Numbered from the stretch's first letter, positions 38,962-45,543 are shown. The stretch: DNA of 64,000 nucleotides from an uncultured Candidatus Saccharibacteria bacterium (GCA_964399345.1 CAYNQE010000001.1:17060-81059), one strand, 5' to 3'. Numbers and translations are program-made. The notes: generated from the letters alone by a model not told the origin.

Positions 38962-39477
38962 ATGACTCGACGATCTTGGTCCGAGAAGGACCTAGAAACT
39001 GCAGTTAATGCCTCAACTAGCGTAAGGCAGGTGCTGAGAAAGCTTAACTTAAGAGAAGCGGGTGGTAATTATGTTCAAATCCGTAAATATCTAGATGAGT
39101 TGAATATAGACTCCTCGCACTTTAGAGGCAGGGGTTGGGCGCGAGGCCTTAAAGGTATTGGTTCCCCCAGGATTCCTCTAAAGGAAATATTGGTTAAAAA
39201 TAGTTCTTTCCAAAGTCACAAATTGAAAAATCGCTTATTTAAGGAAAACATAAAGTTCAGGGCTTGCGAAATGTGTAAGTGGGCTGAAATTTCCGAGGAT
39301 GGTCGTCAACCTTTGGAGCTTGACCATATCAACGGGGACAGGCATGATAATCGTCTACCTAACCTAAGAATTTTGTGCCCAAATTGTCATAGCTTGCAGT
39401 CAACGCATCGGGGTAGAAATATTGGTAGATGCCGAGGTGGTGGAGTTGGTAGACACGAGAGGCTTAAAACCTCTTGA
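38962..39477 (+). CDS. HNH homing endonuclease
   Basis: CEMCKW...LELDHINGDRHDNRLPNLRILCPNCHS is a canonical HNH-Zn motif. The last 47 nt and the stop codon lie inside tRNA-Leu(UAA). Confidence 0.8.
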   Translation: MTRRSWSEKDLETAVNASTSVRQVLRKLNLREAGGNYVQIRKYLDELNIDSSHFRGRGWARGLKGIGSPRIPLKEILVKNSSFQSHKLKNRLFKENIKFRACEMCKWAEISEDGRQPLELDHINGDRHDNRLPNLRILCPNCHSLQSTHRGRNIGRCRGGGVGRHERLKTS

Positions 39478-39516
39478 CCGTTTTTGGTCGCGCGGGTTCG
39501 AATCCCGCCCTCGGCA
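39431..39516 (+). tRNA. tRNA-Leu (anticodon TAA)
   Basis: Acceptor GCCGAGG/CCTCGGC. Anticodon stem AGAGG/CCTCT with loop CTTAAAA. Long variable arm. T-loop GGTTCGAATCC. Confidence 0.8.
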
Positions 39517-39763
39517 CCGAAACACAATTAAGCGGTCTTTGACCGACTTCTGGACTGTCCCCGATATACTGTACACACCCAGCTCCGCTTAGAGAGTTGG
39601 CGCAGAATTGCCACGTGCTCTCGCCGTGGGGAGTCCGCCACCGCAGTGGCGGACAATGGACAGCACGCGGAGCGTTCCGCTTTGTTAAAGTTAATCGCTC
39701 CGCGATTGTTTCTCAAAAAAAGTTCGAGCAAATGATATAATCTCCGCACCAAAATAAAACCTG

Positions 39764-39935: not shown

Positions 39936-40571
39936 ATGGCTAAGGCACACAAGAAGATTAACATGGCCTGGTCTCCAAAATTATCTTACGCAATAGGAAT
40001 AATAGCCTCTGATGGTAATTTGTCCCCTGATAGAAGGCATATAAACATAACATCAAAAGATCTCTCTATTGTTGAAAGTTGTAAAAGCGCACTAGAGATA
40101 GATAACAAAATAGGAAGGAAGAGCCGCGAACGTTCTTCCGAAAAGGAATATTATGTCCTTCAATTTGGAAGTGTATTGTTTTATCAATTCTTGCTTGACC
40201 TGGGACTTCACCCAAACAAATCAAAAACACTGAAAAAAGTAGACGTTCCTAATGAATATTTCTCACATTTTTTACGAGGACTTATGAATGGTGATGGAAC
40301 AATAACATCCTTTAAGCATCCTTATAGCAAACTACTTCAAACAAGAATATCTTTGGCATCTGCAAGTCCGGATTTTCTAATCTGGATACACGGTAAAATA
40401 CGAAAACTTGTAAATATTGAAGGTGGTTGGATATACAATGCAAAAAAGAAAAATATCTCCATGCTTACATTTGGCAAAAGAGACACTATACTAGTCTGCA
40501 AATTTATGTATAATAAATCGGCTACATACAAGCTTATGCGTAAATATGATTGCATAGAAAAGTATCTTTAA
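39936..40571 (+). CDS. Double-motif (monomeric) LAGLIDADG homing endonuclease
   Basis: Two LAGLIDADG helices, YAIGIIASDGNL and HFLRGLMNGDGTI, about 100 aa apart. 211 aa. It fills the tRNA-Lys/tRNA-Leu spacer exactly. Confidence 0.8.
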   Translation: MAKAHKKINMAWSPKLSYAIGIIASDGNLSPDRRHINITSKDLSIVESCKSALEIDNKIGRKSRERSSEKEYYVLQFGSVLFYQFLLDLGLHPNKSKTLKKVDVPNEYFSHFLRGLMNGDGTITSFKHPYSKLLQTRISLASASPDFLIWIHGKIRKLVNIEGGWIYNAKKKNISMLTFGKRDTILVCKFMYNKSATYKLMRKYDCIEKYL

Positions 40572-40574
40572 GTT

Positions 40575-40659
40575 GGGCGAGTGGTGAAATTGGTATACAC
40601 GCGTGGTTTAGGACCACGTTCCGCAAGGAGTGGAGGTTCAAGTCCTCTCTCGCCCACCA
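40575..40659 (+). tRNA. tRNA-Leu (anticodon TAG), CCA encoded
   Basis: Acceptor GGGCGAG/CTCGCCC. Anticodon stem CGTGG/CCACG with loop TTTAGGA. Long variable arm. Ends ACCA. Confidence 0.8.
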
Positions 40660-40667
40660 GAATAGAA

Positions 40668-40812
40668 CTTGTCCGCCTACGCACTGGACGTGTCGCCTCG
40701 TTCCACTCAGCAACCTAAATACAAACTCATTCCCTTTCAACTTTTTACGACTCCCCCAGACCCCCACCGCAGGGAAAAGGAAAGGTGAGGAAATGGTTTG
40801 TTTTTTGGTTTA
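40668..40812 (+). repeat. Repeat A: about 145 bp left-flank copy of an inverted repeat pair bracketing the DGR. Begins 9 nt after tRNA-Leu(UAG).
   Basis: The reverse complement of 43553-43690 aligns base-for-base with this segment at about 80% identity, for example cgcctacgca[c/t]tggac...gttccactc...acccccaccgc[a/g]ggg...ggaaatg. Confidence 0.7.
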
Positions 40813-40827
40813 CTACTACGTAGTTAA

Positions 40828-41826
40828 CTACTTATTTAAATGTGTAGAAAGGGAGCGCGTGTACTCTTTTAACTCATAAGCATCTCCATGTCCGAGTAGT
40901 CCCAAGTATGATTGTAAAGTCCATTGTTTGCCATCAACTTCACTAATTCTCTTTAACATTCTTCGTTTTGTTACACTGCGTAGTACACGGTGAGTCGGAA
41001 AGTGAACCCAACCTAGAAAGTCAACTCCTGAGGAGAATGTTTCAATGGAAGTCTTTCGTTTATGCAATTTAAGTTGTAACTCTTCTTTTAGAAACGCACC
41101 TATGCACCGATGTATTTCCAACAACTCTTGTCTGTCTCGCGAAAGAATCACAAAATCGTCAGCATAACGAATATAATATTTAGCTTTCAGTTTGTGTTTA
41201 ACAAACTTATCAAGCTCATTCATATATACATTAACAAAGAGTTGCGAAGTGAGGTTACCAAGTGGTAATCCTTTTCTTTTCTCACCAGAGCTGAAACTCC
41301 CAACAATCTCTTCTAAAAGCGAAATTATATCTTTGTCAGAAATGTGTTTCTTCAAAATATTCATTAAGATAGAGTGGCCAATGGAGGCAAAGAATTTTCG
41401 TATATCGCTTTTAAATACCCAAACTGTTTTCGTGTTGTTCTTTGAAACTTTGTTTACAAAACTGCGAAGCCGATCAATTGCTCTGTGTGTCCCTTTGTTG
41501 TTTCTGCAAGAATATGAGTCAGCGATGAACGTATTGTCAAAATATGGATAGAGTTGTCTATATATTGCATGGTGAAATAGTCTGTCTCGCACGCTTGCCT
41601 TATGAATATTTCTTGGTTTGGGATCGGAAATGTTAAAAGCTTCGTATCTACCGTGCTTGTATGTTTTGTTTTTTAAATCTTGGTGTAATGAAAGTATGTT
41701 ATCCATTAGATGTAATTGGAACTCCTGCACGTCCTTACGTTTTCGTTTACCGTTTAAGAATTCCTTCCACGCACCGAGGAGATTTTCTACACAGATGATA
41801 TCATTGTAGGTATGAACAAATTTCAT
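40828..41826 (-). CDS. DGR-type reverse transcriptase
   Basis: RT motifs KHGRYEAFNISDPKPRNIHKASVRDRLFHHAI (domains 1-2) and YIRYADDFVIL (YADD catalytic box). 332 aa with no maturase or endonuclease domain. A TR/VR pair lies adjacent. Confidence 0.85.
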   Translation of the reverse strand: MKFVHTYNDIICVENLLGAWKEFLNGKRKRKDVQEFQLHLMDNILSLHQDLKNKTYKHGRYEAFNISDPKPRNIHKASVRDRLFHHAIYRQLYPYFDNTFIADSYSCRNNKGTHRAIDRLRSFVNKVSKNNTKTVWVFKSDIRKFFASIGHSILMNILKKHISDKDIISLLEEIVGSFSSGEKRKGLPLGNLTSQLFVNVYMNELDKFVKHKLKAKYYIRYADDFVILSRDRQELLEIHRCIGAFLKEELQLKLHKRKTSIETFSSGVDFLGWVHFPTHRVLRSVTKRRMLKRISEVDGKQWTLQSYLGLLGHGDAYELKEYTRSLSTHLNK

Positions 41827-41890
41827 CCTCAGAATCCTACCCCCCCCCTCAGCGATTTCGCAATCAAAGCTAATTCCCGTTATATTAAAA

Positions 41891-42223
41891 CTGAAAGATG
41901 TATATAGACTATGGCAGGAATATCTTGTTCATTTTCCGAAACAAAATCGCTATACCTTAGGGAGCAAAATTGATGAAGTATTCTTGATTGCTATAGAGTA
42001 CTGTTTTCTTGCCAGCTACGCCCCAAGGGATACTAAAATTATTCATCTCAACCGCTGTATTTCGCGAGTTGACTTGCTCAAACTTCTTTTGCAACTAGCG
42101 TGGGAAATACAAGCTTTAGATACTAAAAAATATACAGTACTTAGTGAGCAACTACAGGAAGTTGGAAGAATGCTTGGTGGGTGGAGAAAGGGGTTGGAAG
42201 TTAAAAACTCCCCACAAAAGTGA
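41891..42223 (+). CDS. avd: Avd-like accessory variability determinant (four-helix-bundle family). It is on the strand opposite the RT. The start is uncertain, with no in-frame ATG. A TTG at 41984 or CTG at 41891 could serve.
   Basis: In-frame translation ...KDVYRLWQEYLVHFPKQNRYTLGSKIDEVFLIAIEY...LLKLLLQLAWEIQALDTKKYTVLSEQLQEVGRMLGGWRKGL matches Avd/'23S rRNA intervening sequence protein' family features (WQ...FPK.E.Y.LGSQI and ...EV.KML.GL). Confidence 0.5.
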   Translation: MKDVYRLWQEYLVHFPKQNRYTLGSKIDEVFLIAIEYCFLASYAPRDTKIIHLNRCISRVDLLKLLLQLAWEIQALDTKKYTVLSEQLQEVGRMLGGWRKGLEVKNSPQK

Positions 42224-42235
42224 GGAGAAATATGT

Positions 42236-42351
42236 GCAGTAGCTAAAGACACGGTTGCCAGCATTCCAGACATTGCCGTCAAGCGGATTCGCATTGAAGT
42301 TCCACTTGGAATCGTCGGAGTTCCAGTTCGCGTTGACCACGAAGCCTTCAC
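42236..42351 (-). repeat. DGR template repeat (TR), 116 bp
   Basis: Collinear with VR 42686-42801 and no indels. 13 of 14 internal mismatches lie at TR positions that are A on the minus (coding-sense) strand. Confidence 0.8.
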
Positions 42352-42607
42352 TCGTAATGTGACCAATACCATCTGTACCACCACCCATTGAATATTCTCT
42401 GGGCTGTATATTATTCAGGACGTTATAAATCCTTCAGTATCAATCACCAACTGCATTTATTTTTTCAGAGATACAACAGATATACTCTTGGAGAAACCAT
42501 AGTCTAACTCCAACTCTGACATTTGTTTTACCTAAAGCTTCTTGCCCGAGCCATAACCAGAACATAATAAAAACTTCGTTTTGCAGTATAGCAAAATCCC
42601 TTATGTG

Positions 42608-42648
42608 TAAAAATAGCCCCTCAAACGCTTGAAGCGTCAAAGGGGCTA
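42608..42648 (-). terminator. Rho-independent terminator for the DGR target transcript
   Basis: Nested hairpin agcccct...acgcttgaagcgt...aggggct followed by an ATTTTTA run on the minus strand. Confidence 0.5.
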
Positions 42649-42655
42649 AGGGACA

Positions 42656-42678
42656 AAGGACTGAAGGACTCAGTCCTT
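42656..42678 (-). promoter_or_regulatory. DGR VR-proximal hairpin (9-bp stem, 5-nt loop), 4 nt downstream of the target stop codon
   Basis: aaggactga-aggac-tcagtcctt is perfectly self-complementary. Its position relative to the VR matches the hairpin/cruciform that supports retrohoming in characterised DGRs. Confidence 0.6.
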
Positions 42679-42682
42679 AGGT

Positions 42683-43288
42683 TCAGCAGTTGCTAAAGAC
42701 ACGGCTGCCAGCAGGCCAGACAAAGCCGTCAAGCGGACTCGCACTGAAGTACCACTTGGAACCGTCGGAGTCCCAGATCGCGATGAACACGAAGCCTCCA
42801 CGGGGCTTGTTCACGTCAGGAACGAAGAAGAACAAGTTAGCAGCATAGTTTTCAACCAACAGGTCGCCTTCCGCTTCGCCACTTGGCTGTAGAGCAGTTA
42901 AACTGTCCATATGTGCCAGTAGAACCCTGATATCGCGATATATGGATTCAGGATATTCCTTCATAATATCCCACTCTCTCGTTTGAGTTTCCAGTTTGCG
43001 ATAGTGAGTCGCGATTTCAGGAACTGAAGCAATCGGTTTCGCCACCGGCAAAATTAGACTTGCCATATTCGGCGACGACCAACGTCCTTCTTTGCGAGTC
43101 TTGAAAGCGGTTTTTGGCACAAACTTTTTGGTTCGTGCCGGAATGACTGCCCCTTTCTTGAGTTCGCCCAGCTGAGAGACGGCCACAATTTTTGTCCGCC
43201 CAGCAAGCAATGCGTCAATACCCACCTCTCCACCGTGGATATTCCAGACTGCCTGTATTCGGTCGGGAGTTTTGTTAGCTTTTGACAT
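42683..43288 (-). CDS. DGR target (variable) protein, 201 aa, with a C-terminal CLec-like variable region and no signal peptide
   Basis: Carries the VR. C-terminal W..DGSKW.F.......DG.VW.AGSRV pattern. GC content is visibly higher than the flanking genes. Confidence 0.7.
   Translation of the reverse strand: MSKANKTPDRIQAVWNIHGGEVGIDALLAGRTKIVAVSQLGELKKGAVIPARTKKFVPKTAFKTRKEGRWSSPNMASLILPVAKPIASVPEIATHYRKLETQTREWDIMKEYPESIYRDIRVLLAHMDSLTALQPSGEAEGDLLVENYAANLFFFVPDVNKPRGGFVFIAIWDSDGSKWYFSASPLDGFVWPAGSRVFSNC
42686..42801 (-). repeat. DGR variable repeat (VR) at the 3' end of the target gene
   Basis: Same alignment as listed for the TR. The VR encodes the C-terminal ...FVFIAIWDSDGSKWYFSASPLDGFVWPAGSRVFSNC. 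The TR in the same frame reads Asn-rich ...VVNANWNSDDSKWNFNANPLDGNVWNAGNRVFSYC. Confidence 0.8.
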
Positions 43289-43552
43289 TGTCTTCTCCTT
43301 TATCCGTATAGGATATTAAGGTACACCTTTGCCCGTATAGAACAAAAGTACTAGACCGTGTGGTCTTAGCTACAAACAACCGAAATTTCGGTAACTTGTA
43401 GCTAGGACCAACAAATATTATGTAAATGAACTTCATGCATATTATACCACACTTCGTGGAGTATGCAAGACTAACTTCGCAAATCACGAAAAACAGAGAG
43501 CTCGTACGCTTTGCGTATAAGAGAACTGTTTTGTAGTGACGCAGCGAACCCG

Positions 43553-43690
43553 AAAAACAAACACATTTCCTTCTTTCTTCTTTCCCCGCGGTGGGGGTAT
43601 GGGGGAAGCCGTAAAAAATTGAAAGGAAATGTTTTGTTTTTTGGTCGCCGAGTGGAACAAGGCGGTAAGTCCAATGCGTAGGCGTATGTT
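43553..43690 (-). repeat. Repeat B: right-flank inverted copy of repeat A. It contains an internal 20-bp-arm palindrome (43559-43580 and 43625-43644).
   Basis: Same alignment as listed for repeat A. Arms cccgaaaaacaaacacatttcc and ggaaatgttttgttttttgg are near-perfect reverse complements. Confidence 0.7.
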
Positions 43691-43806
43691 TAGAGATGCC
43701 ACAGATTCGGCGCGTGAGATTAGTGTTTGCTTTGAAAATAGGTTCTACCTTGGTGAAATAGACGCACAAATAAGTAAAAACGCACCTTACAGGTGCGTTT
43801 TTACTT

Positions 43807-44040
43807 TTAGATTCCAAACGTACTTTTTATAATACCTAGTATTCCAAAGACGGACGCCATAATGAAGATCCCTAATACTCCATATATCATATGCTGAACC
43901 CCTTCAGATCTTTTATCAGGACTATTCATGTTCAGCAAAAAGATCACGAGACCCCAGGTGAACATAAAAACTCCGGCTGCGAATATAACTAGTATTAAAG
44001 GATTAATTATTGAATCAACAATTTTATCCATTACCTCCAT
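43807..44040 (-). CDS. Small two-TM secreted protein, T4SS-pilin-like. Tandem paralog 1 of 5.
   Basis: Two hydrophobic helices. Shares a conserved C-terminal stretch with the other four tandem paralogs (compare 44043-44387 and 44481-44798). Confidence 0.4.
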   Translation of the reverse strand: MEVMDKIVDSIINPLILVIFAAGVFMFTWGLVIFLLNMNSPDKRSEGVQHMIYGVLGIFIMASVFGILGIIKSTFGI

Positions 44041-44042
44041 GC

Positions 44043-44387
44043 CTATCTCCTAATTTCCTTAGGAACAATTGGGGCTGAGCCCGTTACCTCAAATGTCTCT
44101 TGTAGTATTCGAATAATTCCCCAGATACTTACCATAACGAATATCGCTATAATTCCCATAAACATTTGGTTTATGGCCTTTCCTTTTGCCTCTGAATCGT
44201 CAGACTTTAATATATAGCTAGCCAATCCCCAAAAGAAATATAAAACGGCAAGAGCCAAAATTATTGGGATGATTCCGTTTATAATACCGCTAATTGTGTT
44301 TAATGTATTTCCAAGAGTAACGGCGGATGCTGTTGTAGGCATCATTACTGCAACTCCGGTTAATATAAGTGCGTTTATTTTTTGCAT
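44043..44387 (-). CDS. Small two-TM secreted protein, T4SS-pilin-like. Tandem paralog 2 of 5.
   Basis: Signal peptide then two TM helices. Conserved ...VMVSIWGIIRILQ tail shared with paralog 3. Confidence 0.45.
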   Translation of the reverse strand: MQKINALILTGVAVMMPTTASAVTLGNTLNTISGIINGIIPIILALAVLYFFWGLASYILKSDDSEAKGKAINQMFMGIIAIFVMVSIWGIIRILQETFEVTGSAPIVPKEIRR

Positions 44388-44480
44388 TGTATGTTAATAA
44401 AACTAATAAAATACGTTTGAATGTACTTACCTATATGGTAGCACCGTTACTAGTAGATTTAATATATTTTGGGGATATCG

Positions 44481-44798
44481 TTAAAGACCACCAAAAAGAG
44501 TCGACTGAAGTATTCGGATGATTCCCCATATACTTACCATAACGAAAAGAATAATAACCCCCCAAACCATAGAATCCTTGAGCTCTTTTTTCTTCTCCGC
44601 AGAGTCTGCATCGTAATTAAATAGTCCTGAGGCTACTCTCCAGAAGAAGAACGCAAGAGCAAGGCTAAATAATGCAGTGGTTGCTAGATTAAGCATGTCC
44701 ACTGCCCAATACGAAAGTTCCTTAAATGTTTTTGCAGCAGCAAATGAGACCTCAAAACTTAAAAGGAAAGTTGCTACGATAAAAAAAAGATTTTTCAT
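44481..44798 (-). CDS. Small two-TM secreted protein, T4SS-pilin-like. Tandem paralog 3 of 5.
   Basis: Signal peptide then two TM helices. ...VMVSIWGIIRILQ tail. Confidence 0.45.
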   Translation of the reverse strand: MKNLFFIVATFLLSFEVSFAAAKTFKELSYWAVDMLNLATTALFSLALAFFFWRVASGLFNYDADSAEKKKELKDSMVWGVIILFVMVSIWGIIRILQSTLFGGL

Positions 44799-44799
44799 A

Positions 44800-45159
44800 T
44801 TAAACAGCTAGAATTGGATCAATCGTTCCCTTAATTAAAGTAGCTAAGGCAAACGCGCCAAGAAGTAATGCCACTCCTATAACTACCCATAAGAAGTTAC
44901 TTTTTGCCTCCCCAAGTTTATCTGAGTTTCCTCGTGCCATTACAAACAAAAATCCTGAATATACTATGAACAATACTGCTACTGGAAATAGTATTTGTGT
45001 AACCACATTCAAAAATGCTTCTGTGAAGCCAGCTACGGTATCTAGGCCGTTGCATAATGGGTTTTGAAACCCTTTTCCCCCTCCTCTGGAACAAGCGGCA
45101 GAAACAACTCCTGGAACGGACAAAAGAAACATAGATGTAGAGAACAATATTTTTTTCAT
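44800..45159 (-). CDS. Small two-TM secreted protein, T4SS-pilin-like. Tandem paralog 4 of 5.
   Basis: Signal peptide, Cys-containing segment, two TM helices. Confidence 0.4.
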   Translation of the reverse strand: MKKILFSTSMFLLSVPGVVSAACSRGGGKGFQNPLCNGLDTVAGFTEAFLNVVTQILFPVAVLFIVYSGFLFVMARGNSDKLGEAKSNFLWVVIGVALLLGAFALATLIKGTIDPILAV

Positions 45160-45171
45160 ATAAATATAATA

Positions 45172-45543
45172 TCACTTTTTATACAAAGCGTATAAAAGGA
45201 ATGCGGATATAACTACTAAAAGTGCTGACGAGGTTAATCCACTGAGCGTGTTGCCAACAAGTTGTGCTATCGCCCAAAGAGCTAAGAATACGGTTCCTCC
45301 TATTAACGTGGTGAGTGCCATTGATTTTGCTTTCGTAAGACCTGCGGGATTGCCTTGTGCTGAGACAAACAAAAACCCTGTCCACACTATTAACACTATT
45401 AATGCAGGAGTACCCACATAGATAACTCCATTAACGAAAGCTTCTAAGATTTCTCTTACAAATCTAAGGAGTAAAGGGTTTTCAAAAGTAGCAGCACTTA
45501 CTATCCCCGGTAGAAAAAGAACGGCTAAATATATTAATCTCAT
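45172..45543 (-). CDS. Small two-TM secreted protein, T4SS-pilin-like. Tandem paralog 5 of 5.
   Basis: Signal peptide and two TM helices, similar to paralog 4. Confidence 0.4.
   Translation of the reverse strand: MRLIYLAVLFLPGIVSAATFENPLLLRFVREILEAFVNGVIYVGTPALIVLIVWTGFLFVSAQGNPAGLTKAKSMALTTLIGGTVFLALWAIAQLVGNTLSGLTSSALLVVISAFLLYALYKK

Follow-up and report, generated by a model that had tools for sequence, protein, structure and literature searches.

The window analysed here is a stretch of 64,000 nucleotides of DNA from an uncultured Candidatus Saccharibacteria bacterium (GCA_964399345.1, CAYNQE010000001.1:17060-81059), numbered from its first letter. At positions 40668-43690 it carries a reverse transcriptase (RT) gene and two copies of a 116-nt repeat, one of them at the 3′ end of a gene for a 201-aa protein. 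An earlier note on this DNA had proposed that the locus is a complete diversity-generating retroelement (DGR). Its coordinates and all the parts it named (RT, template repeat, variable repeat, 201-aa gene and the position of a hairpin) were confirmed in the present analysis. What it overlooked is an avd gene, encoded on the opposite strand between template repeat and RT, with which the element comprises target gene with variable repeat, template repeat, avd and RT. Read on the minus strand, these follow one another in that order:

42683-43288, minus strand: target (variable protein) gene, 201 aa, with the variable repeat as its 3′ end
42686-42801, minus strand: variable repeat (VR), 116 nt, the last 38 codons of the target
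42236-42351, minus strand: template repeat (TR), 116 nt, rich in Asn (AAY) codons, inside a 78-aa open reading frame (ORF)
approx. 41870-42223, plus strand: avd (accessory variability determinant), reading frame intact, between TR and RT
40828-41826, minus strand: DGR reverse transcriptase, 332 aa, with LGNLTSQ and YADD motifs (Pfam RVT_1, 9.8e-26)

The proposal of a complete DGR was thus borne out, every defining component being present and the Avd gene added to them. The locus is very probably a chromosomal DGR of the type found in the candidate phyla radiation (CPR, Patescibacteria), with all of its parts present and intact. Its core, with the TR running from 42351 to 42236 (minus strand), avd from 41870 to 42223 (plus strand) and the RT gene from 41826 to 40828 (minus strand), has the B3 architecture, TR-(avd)-RT, which makes up 90% of the CPR DGRs surveyed by Wu et al. 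(2018, PMC5758913) and is almost absent outside the CPR. The element is a textbook member of this CPR B3 lineage. Neither a second VR-like copy of the TR nor a second RT was found within the 64-kb window.

Template and variable repeats

In the coding sense (minus strand), TR and VR form a 116-nt direct repeat of 87% identity with 15 mismatches, 13 of which replace an A of the TR with C, G or T in the VR. These 13 substitutions at template adenines on the coding strand, already reported in the earlier note from alignment by eye, were all recovered. As only 27 of the 116 TR positions are adenines, the probability that at least 13 of 15 mismatches would fall on A is 3.8e-7 (binomial) or 2.9e-8 (hypergeometric). 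Since the mismatches fall on the adenines of the A-rich copy, this copy is identified as the TR and the other as the VR, and the adenine-specific pattern implies at least one mutagenic homing event in this lineage. Differences affect 13 of the 27 adenines and 2 of the 89 other positions, and this low divergence outside adenines fits a recent homing event.

The adenines of the TR are placed so that their replacement would alter the protein: 26 of the 27 occupy codon positions 1 or 2, and nine codons are of the AAY type. In total 16 codons can vary, including all nine AAY codons, which corresponds to ~2.6e15 possible protein variants. The in-frame translations are EGFVVNANWNSDDSKWNFNANPLDGNVWNAGNRVFSYC for the TR and GGFVFIAIWDSDGSKWYFSASPLDGFVWPAGSRVFSNC for the VR, exactly as given in the earlier note; the 78-aa ORF that holds the TR is probably not a real gene. 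Past the last A-to-N difference, both repeats share CCGTGTCTTTAGC[A/T]ACTGC, with a single T/A difference, and then diverge. The homology between them extends 5-6 nt further in the 3′ direction than in most relatives of the element. A GC-richer segment, CTGGCA(G/A)CCGTGTC, is a candidate for the initiation of mutagenic homing region (IMH/IMH*).

Reverse transcriptase and its relatives

The best match of the RT among PDB sequences (phmmer) is bRT, the RT of the DGR of Bordetella phage BPP-1, with 158 bits and an E-value of 2.5e-45 over residues 9-310. The top chain belongs to 8ub7 and related entries, whose 328-aa RT was identified by tblastn as the product of BPP-1 brt. The alignment pairs LGNLTSQLFVNVY with IGSLTSQLFANVY, YADD with YMDD, and LGNLTSQ with IGSLTSQ; the motif [LIV]GxxxSQ is diagnostic of DGR RTs. 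Group II RTs in the PDB reach at most 90 bits (E 2e-24 or weaker), PDB chains deposited as “retron-type” RTs likewise give E-values of 2e-24 or weaker, and there was no bona fide retron RT among the PDB matches. The top-scoring NCBIfam model is the group II RT/maturase model TIGR04416, at 157.9 bits against a cut-off of 300; the retron model NF038233 scores 62.2 against 235, and the Drt and Abi models are far under their cut-offs. Rfam yielded no match to a group II intron RNA or a retron msr/msd, whether the gathering threshold or E <= 1 was applied. A group II intron and a retron were accordingly rejected as identities of the locus, on the TIGR04416 score and the absence of an Rfam intron RNA for the former and on the NF038233 score and the absence of an Rfam match for the latter. 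Judged by these comparisons, the RT belongs with the DGR RTs and not with those of group II introns or retrons. The earlier note had named a grouping with the latter two as evidence against a DGR; what was found is 2.5e-45 for bRT versus 2e-24 for group II enzymes.

A scan of one genome per GTDB species returned more than 550 relatives of the RT, the best 80 of them at 60-67% identity. These 80 all come from metagenome-assembled genomes (MAGs), nearly all of them of Patescibacteria/CPR, Paceibacterota, Kaiserbacteria, Saccharibacteria and Yanofskybacteria included. In essentially every one of the 80 surveyed loci (related loci are numbered with the prefix L below) that has sequence upstream of the RT gene, avd lies directly upstream and on the opposite strand. 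Among the 41 loci with a TR/VR pair that were used further, the distance from the end of the TR to the RT reading frame is 264-506 nt (mostly 320-410) and the VR usually lies ~390-530 nt upstream of the TR, apart from two remote VRs; mismatches between the repeats are almost all at TR adenines.

The avd gene

The avd product passes the gathering cut-off of the Pfam family bAvd (52.8 bits, cut-off 40). Its 5′ end is unusual. In this clade avd lacks an ATG at its conserved N-terminus, both in the window (41855-41984) and in many relatives (L004-L087). A conserved Leu codon, 20 codons before an FPK motif, was read in 21 relatives; it is TTG or CTG in most of them, a few having AGGAG ahead of it. 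In the window this codon is CTA (41870), followed by ATT (41873). Two relatives also lack a canonical start at this point, with CTC in L044 and TTA in L072, which suggests that unusual initiation may be routine in the clade. That the reading frame is intact and highly conserved argues for function. It was observed in addition that gene callers miss or truncate avd in this clade.

The avd and RT genes diverge from a gap of 43 nt, which contains one further feature:

41840-41849, no strand assigned: C10/G10 homopolymer between the avd and RT starts

Relatives in which the start codons were read mostly have C7-C9 in its place. The tract could be prone to slippage, or could form part of the ribosome-binding region of the RT gene.

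The target protein

The 201-aa target has no sequence match in Pfam, NCBIfam or the PDB, and no transmembrane segment was detected (the top Kyte-Doolittle mean over 19 residues is 1.3, against a usual threshold of ~1.6). A word-indexed search with the target returned the query itself as its sole match. When 1.8 billion cluster representatives were scanned exhaustively with HMMER, 121 relatives (E <= 1e-3) were retrieved, nearly all of 140-260 aa and most of them aligned across the greater part of the query. By profile search, these relatives are “hypothetical proteins” of Patescibacteria without a Pfam domain. The C-terminus of the family follows the consensus VFAVxVxWxAxxRxWxVxAxxLxxxxWxAGxRxFSxN, in which invariant Trp, Gly and Arg residues are interleaved with positions that differ freely. 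In other genomes, too, members of this family are DGR targets, with A-biased TR/VR pairs (L004, L006 and approx. 20 of the 80 RT loci). The closest homologue, of 163 aa and 57% identity (L003, 716-1207), lies between a cold-shock gene and the gene for RNase R; there is no TR, avd or RT near it on its 2.6-kb contig.

The C-type lectin (CLec) fold is the usual scaffold of DGR variable proteins, and the earlier note had called the C-terminus of the target “CLec-like”. An AlphaFold2 model based on 31 family members (predicted local distance difference test score, pLDDT, 82.8; predicted template modelling score, pTM, 0.75) places the VR in the last three beta-strands. Foldseek found no match to this model in the PDB or among viral models, and the family profile matched no PDB sequence. 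The label is therefore unproven, and the modelled fold could be that of a very divergent CLec domain or something else. According to Roux et al. (2021, PMC8144416), transmembrane and other recognisable domains are typically missing from CPR DGR targets (clade 2).

DGRs with RTs 60-67% identical to that of the window serve at least six classes of target (L008-L087), which are mutually unalignable or only weakly related. By hhalign, the family of the window target shows no detectable relation to five other classes. The targets of these sibling elements, whose machinery is near-identical, are mostly of ~150-270 aa, with two of ~700 aa, and one alone has a Pfam match, the PcfJ-like 700-aa target of L059.

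Candidate cis elements

The non-coding segments of the element were compared with those of 44 related loci, and follow the same stereotyped arrangement. The following features, all on the minus strand, were noted in the window:

43441-43468: promoter-like site of the target gene, TTGCAT, a 16-nt spacer and TGgTATAAT, found by eye
42634-42682: periodic array of 7-8-nt units GnnCCTTd, between the target stop codon and the terminator, including the 9-bp hairpin
42656-42678: 9-bp hairpin after the VR, perfect stem AAGGACTGA/TCAGTCCTT with a 5-nt loop, 4 nt past the TGA stop codon
42606-42648: strong intrinsic terminator of the target gene, with an interrupted stem of 15 bp and then AUUUUU (z = -7.0 for 42600-42700)
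42585-42597: extended -10 promoter-like box, TTTTGCTATACT, just past the target terminator
42198-42227: hairpin and U-tract after the TR, CTCCTCAC-TTTT-GTGGGGAG followed by TTTTT, 8 nt past the TR

The hairpin after the VR has a folding z-score of -4.1 (DNA parameters) and no counterpart beside the TR. A hairpin or cruciform downstream of the VR occurs in just ~34% of DGRs; in the related loci a short hairpin after the VR is common but not universal (mean z of -1.5; z < -2 in 14 of 44). In the window it is made of GnnCCTTd units of the array. Across the loci compared, this array spans ~65 nt after the VR, with an autocorrelation of 0.38 at shifts 7-8, 0.36 at shift 15 and ~0.2 at shifts 3-5. 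Its periodicity is significant in the window (p = 0.002) and in 38 of the 44 loci (p < 0.05), whatever the target family, and is present neither downstream of the TR nor inside genes across the 44 loci. The motif TT[ATG]G has a frequency of 4.5 per 65 nt in the array, against 0.4 inside genes, and Tandem Repeats Finder (TRF) reports a period of 8 at 42638-42659.

The hairpin after the TR is present in all 44 loci, nearly always as CTC..../....GAG followed by TTTTG/C. The interior of its stem varies between loci with pairing kept, and compensatory changes affect 4 of the 5 consensus pairs. In the window it overlaps the stop codon of avd on the other strand, and it is also reported by the terminator scan. 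It is probably both the terminator and a 3′ structural element of a TR RNA. Upstream, boxes of the type TTTGnTAnAAT were seen by eye in the matching place in relatives, and the box at 42585-42597 is likely the promoter of a separate TR RNA of ~380 nt. The promoter-like site of the target gene is not listed by the promoter scan because its -35 hexamer matches at 3 of 6 positions only. A palindrome with 25-nt arms (43361-43410) was also observed in the 5′ untranslated region of the target gene.

Bracketing repeats and genomic surroundings

The whole cassette is enclosed by an inverted repeat:

40674-40811, no strand assigned: left arm, 15 nt past tRNA-Leu(tag), inner end 17 nt from the RT stop codon
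43547-43684, no strand assigned: right arm, just upstream of the target promoter

The arms align over 141 nt (82% identity, E 2.6e-31) and bracket the cassette exactly. Each consists of a non-palindromic outer part of 45 nt and a long A-rich/U-rich hairpin of ~90 nt. The limits of the element in the earlier note, 40668-43690, coincide with these arms, which are not mentioned there. Further copies of the arms were found neither in the window nor in Rfam, the 80 related loci (nhmmer), or pattern scans of viral and JGI metagenome sequences. The arms may represent bidirectional insulating terminators, footprints of insertion, or a substrate for inversion. A 189-nt inverted repeat of 99% identity surrounds two tandem DGRs in the relative L009, and the cassettes of some relatives are flanked by direct duplications of host sequence, 33-93 nt in length:

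L072: 3204-3252 and 5971-6019
L049: 3277-3365 and 5961-6047
L043: 3357-3389 and 5982-6014
L004: 4742-4783 and 7581-7622

In L072 the RT frame reads on into repeated host sequence, a second copy of the final 16 codons of the host gene upstream, which is a clear signature of insertion. Such duplications around related cassettes hint that these insert or move as units.

The cassette lies between tRNA-Leu(tag) (40575-40659, plus strand) and a run of small TrbC/T4SS-pilin-like genes (type IV secretion system, T4SS) on the minus strand. The GC content is ~40% on both sides and rises to 45-46% over the target gene and the TR. Directly upstream of the target, five small ORFs occupy 43807-45543 (minus strand), three with TrbC/T4SS-pilin Pfam matches and hydrophobic by eye; a perfect 16-bp hairpin at 43772-43806, after this cluster, is probably a bidirectional terminator. 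To the left of the DGR, free-standing HNH and LAGLIDADG endonuclease-like ORFs (38962-39477 and 39936-40571, respectively) are found among five tRNA genes, the HNH ORF running into tRNA-Leu(taa) (39431-39518). ARAGORN also reports a permuted ‘tmRNA*’ at 40567-41163, which takes in both tRNA-Leu and the RT gene's 3′ end; as Rfam gave no tmRNA match, this call is almost certainly spurious.

Proposed mechanism

By analogy with the DGR of BPP-1, the following sequence of events may be envisaged, in which the roles of RT and Avd, the RNA-primed synthesis of complementary DNA (cDNA), the recognition of the target through downstream elements and the transcription units are all inferred. The TR would be transcribed on the minus strand, probably as its own RNA of ~380 nt that begins at the extended -10 box (~42590) and ends at the hairpin/U-tract (42198-42227). 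RT, together with Avd, would reverse-transcribe this RNA with misincorporation opposite template adenines, and the cDNA would replace the VR, and with it the final 38 codons of the target. In this way as many as 16 codons, the nine AAY codons among them, would be recoded, with ~2.6e15 possible proteins as the outcome and the TR itself unchanged. The recipient would probably be marked by the 3′ end of the VR and the hairpin/array downstream of it, the TR being without such an array. In BPP-1, the spacer folds back on the 3′ end of the TR and supplies the priming adenosine (PMC6182149). In the window, the hairpin/U-tract after the TR would have two roles: to terminate the TR RNA, and to place it on RT-Avd so that cDNA synthesis is self-primed and adenine-mutagenic.

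It is tempting to extend these considerations to the clade as a whole, and to suppose both that it uses a cis pair of its own instead of the signal formed by a GC-rich hairpin with a GRNA loop, and that its cassettes are discrete insertable units. The GnnCCTTd array may then be the mark of the recipient, and the covarying hairpin/U-tract may be the end or the primer of a stand-alone TR RNA. We put this combined proposal forward as a speculation that is doubtful as it stands. No description of the array, the hairpin after the TR or cassette-bracketing repeats was found in the DGR literature covered, from which Paul et al. 2017 was absent.

Alternative explanations

Several observations weigh against a complete and working DGR at this locus. 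Two of the 15 mismatches between TR and VR are not at adenines: a G>T change at position 15 of the repeat, near its 5′ edge (TR 42337), and a T>A change at position 111, five bases from its 3′ end (TR 42241). The avd product scores slightly under the equivalog cut-off of the NCBIfam model DivGenRetAVD (69.8 bits, cut-off 80), and its frame has no ATG, GTG or TTG ahead of a TTG at 41984; initiation at a non-canonical codon, for example ATT 41873, is possible, as is a failure to produce Avd at all. The promoter/terminator scan identified no promoter for the RT gene. The hairpin after the VR, which the earlier note had likened to that of characterised DGRs, agrees with these in position and stem length and departs from them in sequence, with a GTCCT loop of 5 nt and 4 GC pairs out of 9 (44%) in place of the GC-rich stem of 7-10 bp and the 4-nt GRNA loop of BPP-1-like elements (PMC3240598). 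Assemblies of the locus from ENA, Logan and JGI, which are consensus sequences, are 100% identical to the window, VR included, and the 90% protein cluster of the target has a single member. Look-ups with the target and two neighbouring proteins gave solely contigs identical to the window.

The earlier note had suggested that the element may be actively diversifying its target. It could also be a relic that diversified its target in the past and is now silent, for instance because Avd is no longer translated, its VR being a frozen allele. The lack of a canonical avd start, with CTA where most relatives read have TTG or CTG, the identical VR in all available assemblies, and the two differences at non-adenines can all be read in this sense. 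We nevertheless consider a relic unlikely: the strongly conserved frames of RT and avd run through without interruption, L044 and L072 also do without a canonical avd start, divergence outside adenines is limited to 2 of 89 positions, and the clade's typical cis elements are all intact. Far less credible still is that the repeats arose by an ordinary duplication of a gene fragment followed by random divergence, beside an unrelated retron or group II RT. The TR does lie within a 78-aa ORF resembling the C-terminus of the target, and a group II RT/maturase model is the top NCBIfam model of the RT. The divergence, however, is biased towards adenines (P ~3e-8) and not random; a gene-fragment duplication with random divergence was among the outcomes that the earlier note had named as speaking against a DGR. 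Moreover, group II, retron and Drt models score far under their cut-offs, Rfam has no intron or retron RNA to offer, bRT is by far the best match of solved structure, an Avd gene is present, and dozens of relatives have an equal anatomy. The adenine bias and the match to bRT effectively refute this origin, to which we assign a negligible probability.

A further possibility, compatible with a DGR, is that the 3-kb cassette is mobile, or was inserted recently, as a unit with the 141-nt repeats as its limits; these would then be terminal repeats or footprints of insertion, with no part in DGR function. The segment enclosed by the arms begins exactly with the target promoter and ends with the RT stop codon, some relatives have 33-93-nt host duplications around their cassettes and, in L072, an RT fused to duplicated host sequence, RTs 60-67% identical to that of the window are spread over many CPR lineages, and the closest homologue of the target (57%, L003) lies in another context with no DGR in the available sequence. 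On the other hand, the cassette contains no transposase or integrase, inspection by eye showed no target-site duplication where the arms end on the outside, the window, the 80 loci and the viral and JGI scans gave no further copy of them, and no empty site was found. In addition, the arms fold as A-tract, hairpin and U-tract and could simply be bidirectional terminators. Mobility of the cassette in the window thus appears quite unlikely, and the preferred reading remains that of an intact chromosomal DGR of the CPR type.

Significance of the locus

Taken alone, the locus is one more CPR DGR beside the thousands already catalogued, and of modest interest. It does provide a clean and fully resolved case, in which coordinates can be given for every part, for the cis elements and for the likely promoters and terminators. 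To our knowledge, no DGR of the CPR type has been characterised biochemically. With a small target (~200 aa) from an unannotated, confidently modelled family, the element is a practical candidate for reconstituting such a system. The features common to the clade, namely the array after the VR, the hairpin/U-tract after the TR, an avd gene without ATG and cassettes flanked by duplications, would, if functional, show how the most abundant lineage of DGRs recognises its target and spreads.

Comparison with known systems

The closest known systems are the CPR B3 DGRs (Wu et al. 2018, PMC5758913; clade 2 of Roux et al. 2021, PMC8144416), which have the same gene order and strands, likewise a small target without transmembrane segment or known domain, and a matching host lineage. 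The RT of the window is 60-67% identical to those of many such elements, and there is no essential difference. Features of its own, relative to these relatives, are the 141-nt inverted repeats, the CTA codon of avd and the longer 3′ homology between TR and VR.

Group II and retron RTs share the RVT_1 palm and fingers with the RT of the window. They differ from it in the traits that mark a DGR, i.e. the [LIV]GxxxSQ motif, the Avd partner and the TR/VR pair.

With the prototype, the BPP-1 DGR (mtd, avd, TR, brt), the element shares homologous RT and Avd proteins, the adenine-specific pattern, AAY codons in the TR, a VR at the 3′ end of the target gene and a hairpin a few nt past the VR. The layout of the core is different: avd of BPP-1 lies upstream of the TR, whereas that of the window lies between TR and RT, on the other strand, so that a TR-RT spacer of 140 nt in BPP-1 corresponds to ~370 nt of antisense avd here. 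Unlike in BPP-1, a hairpin with a U-tract comes directly after the TR. In BPP-1-like hairpins after the VR the stem is GC-rich and the loop is a GRNA tetraloop; the counterpart here is a stem of 44% GC with a 5-nt GTCCT loop, set within an array of 7-8-nt units. Finally, the BPP-1 DGR resides on a phage and diversifies a tail-fibre CLec protein, whereas the DGR of the window is chromosomal and its target is a small, apparently non-membrane protein.

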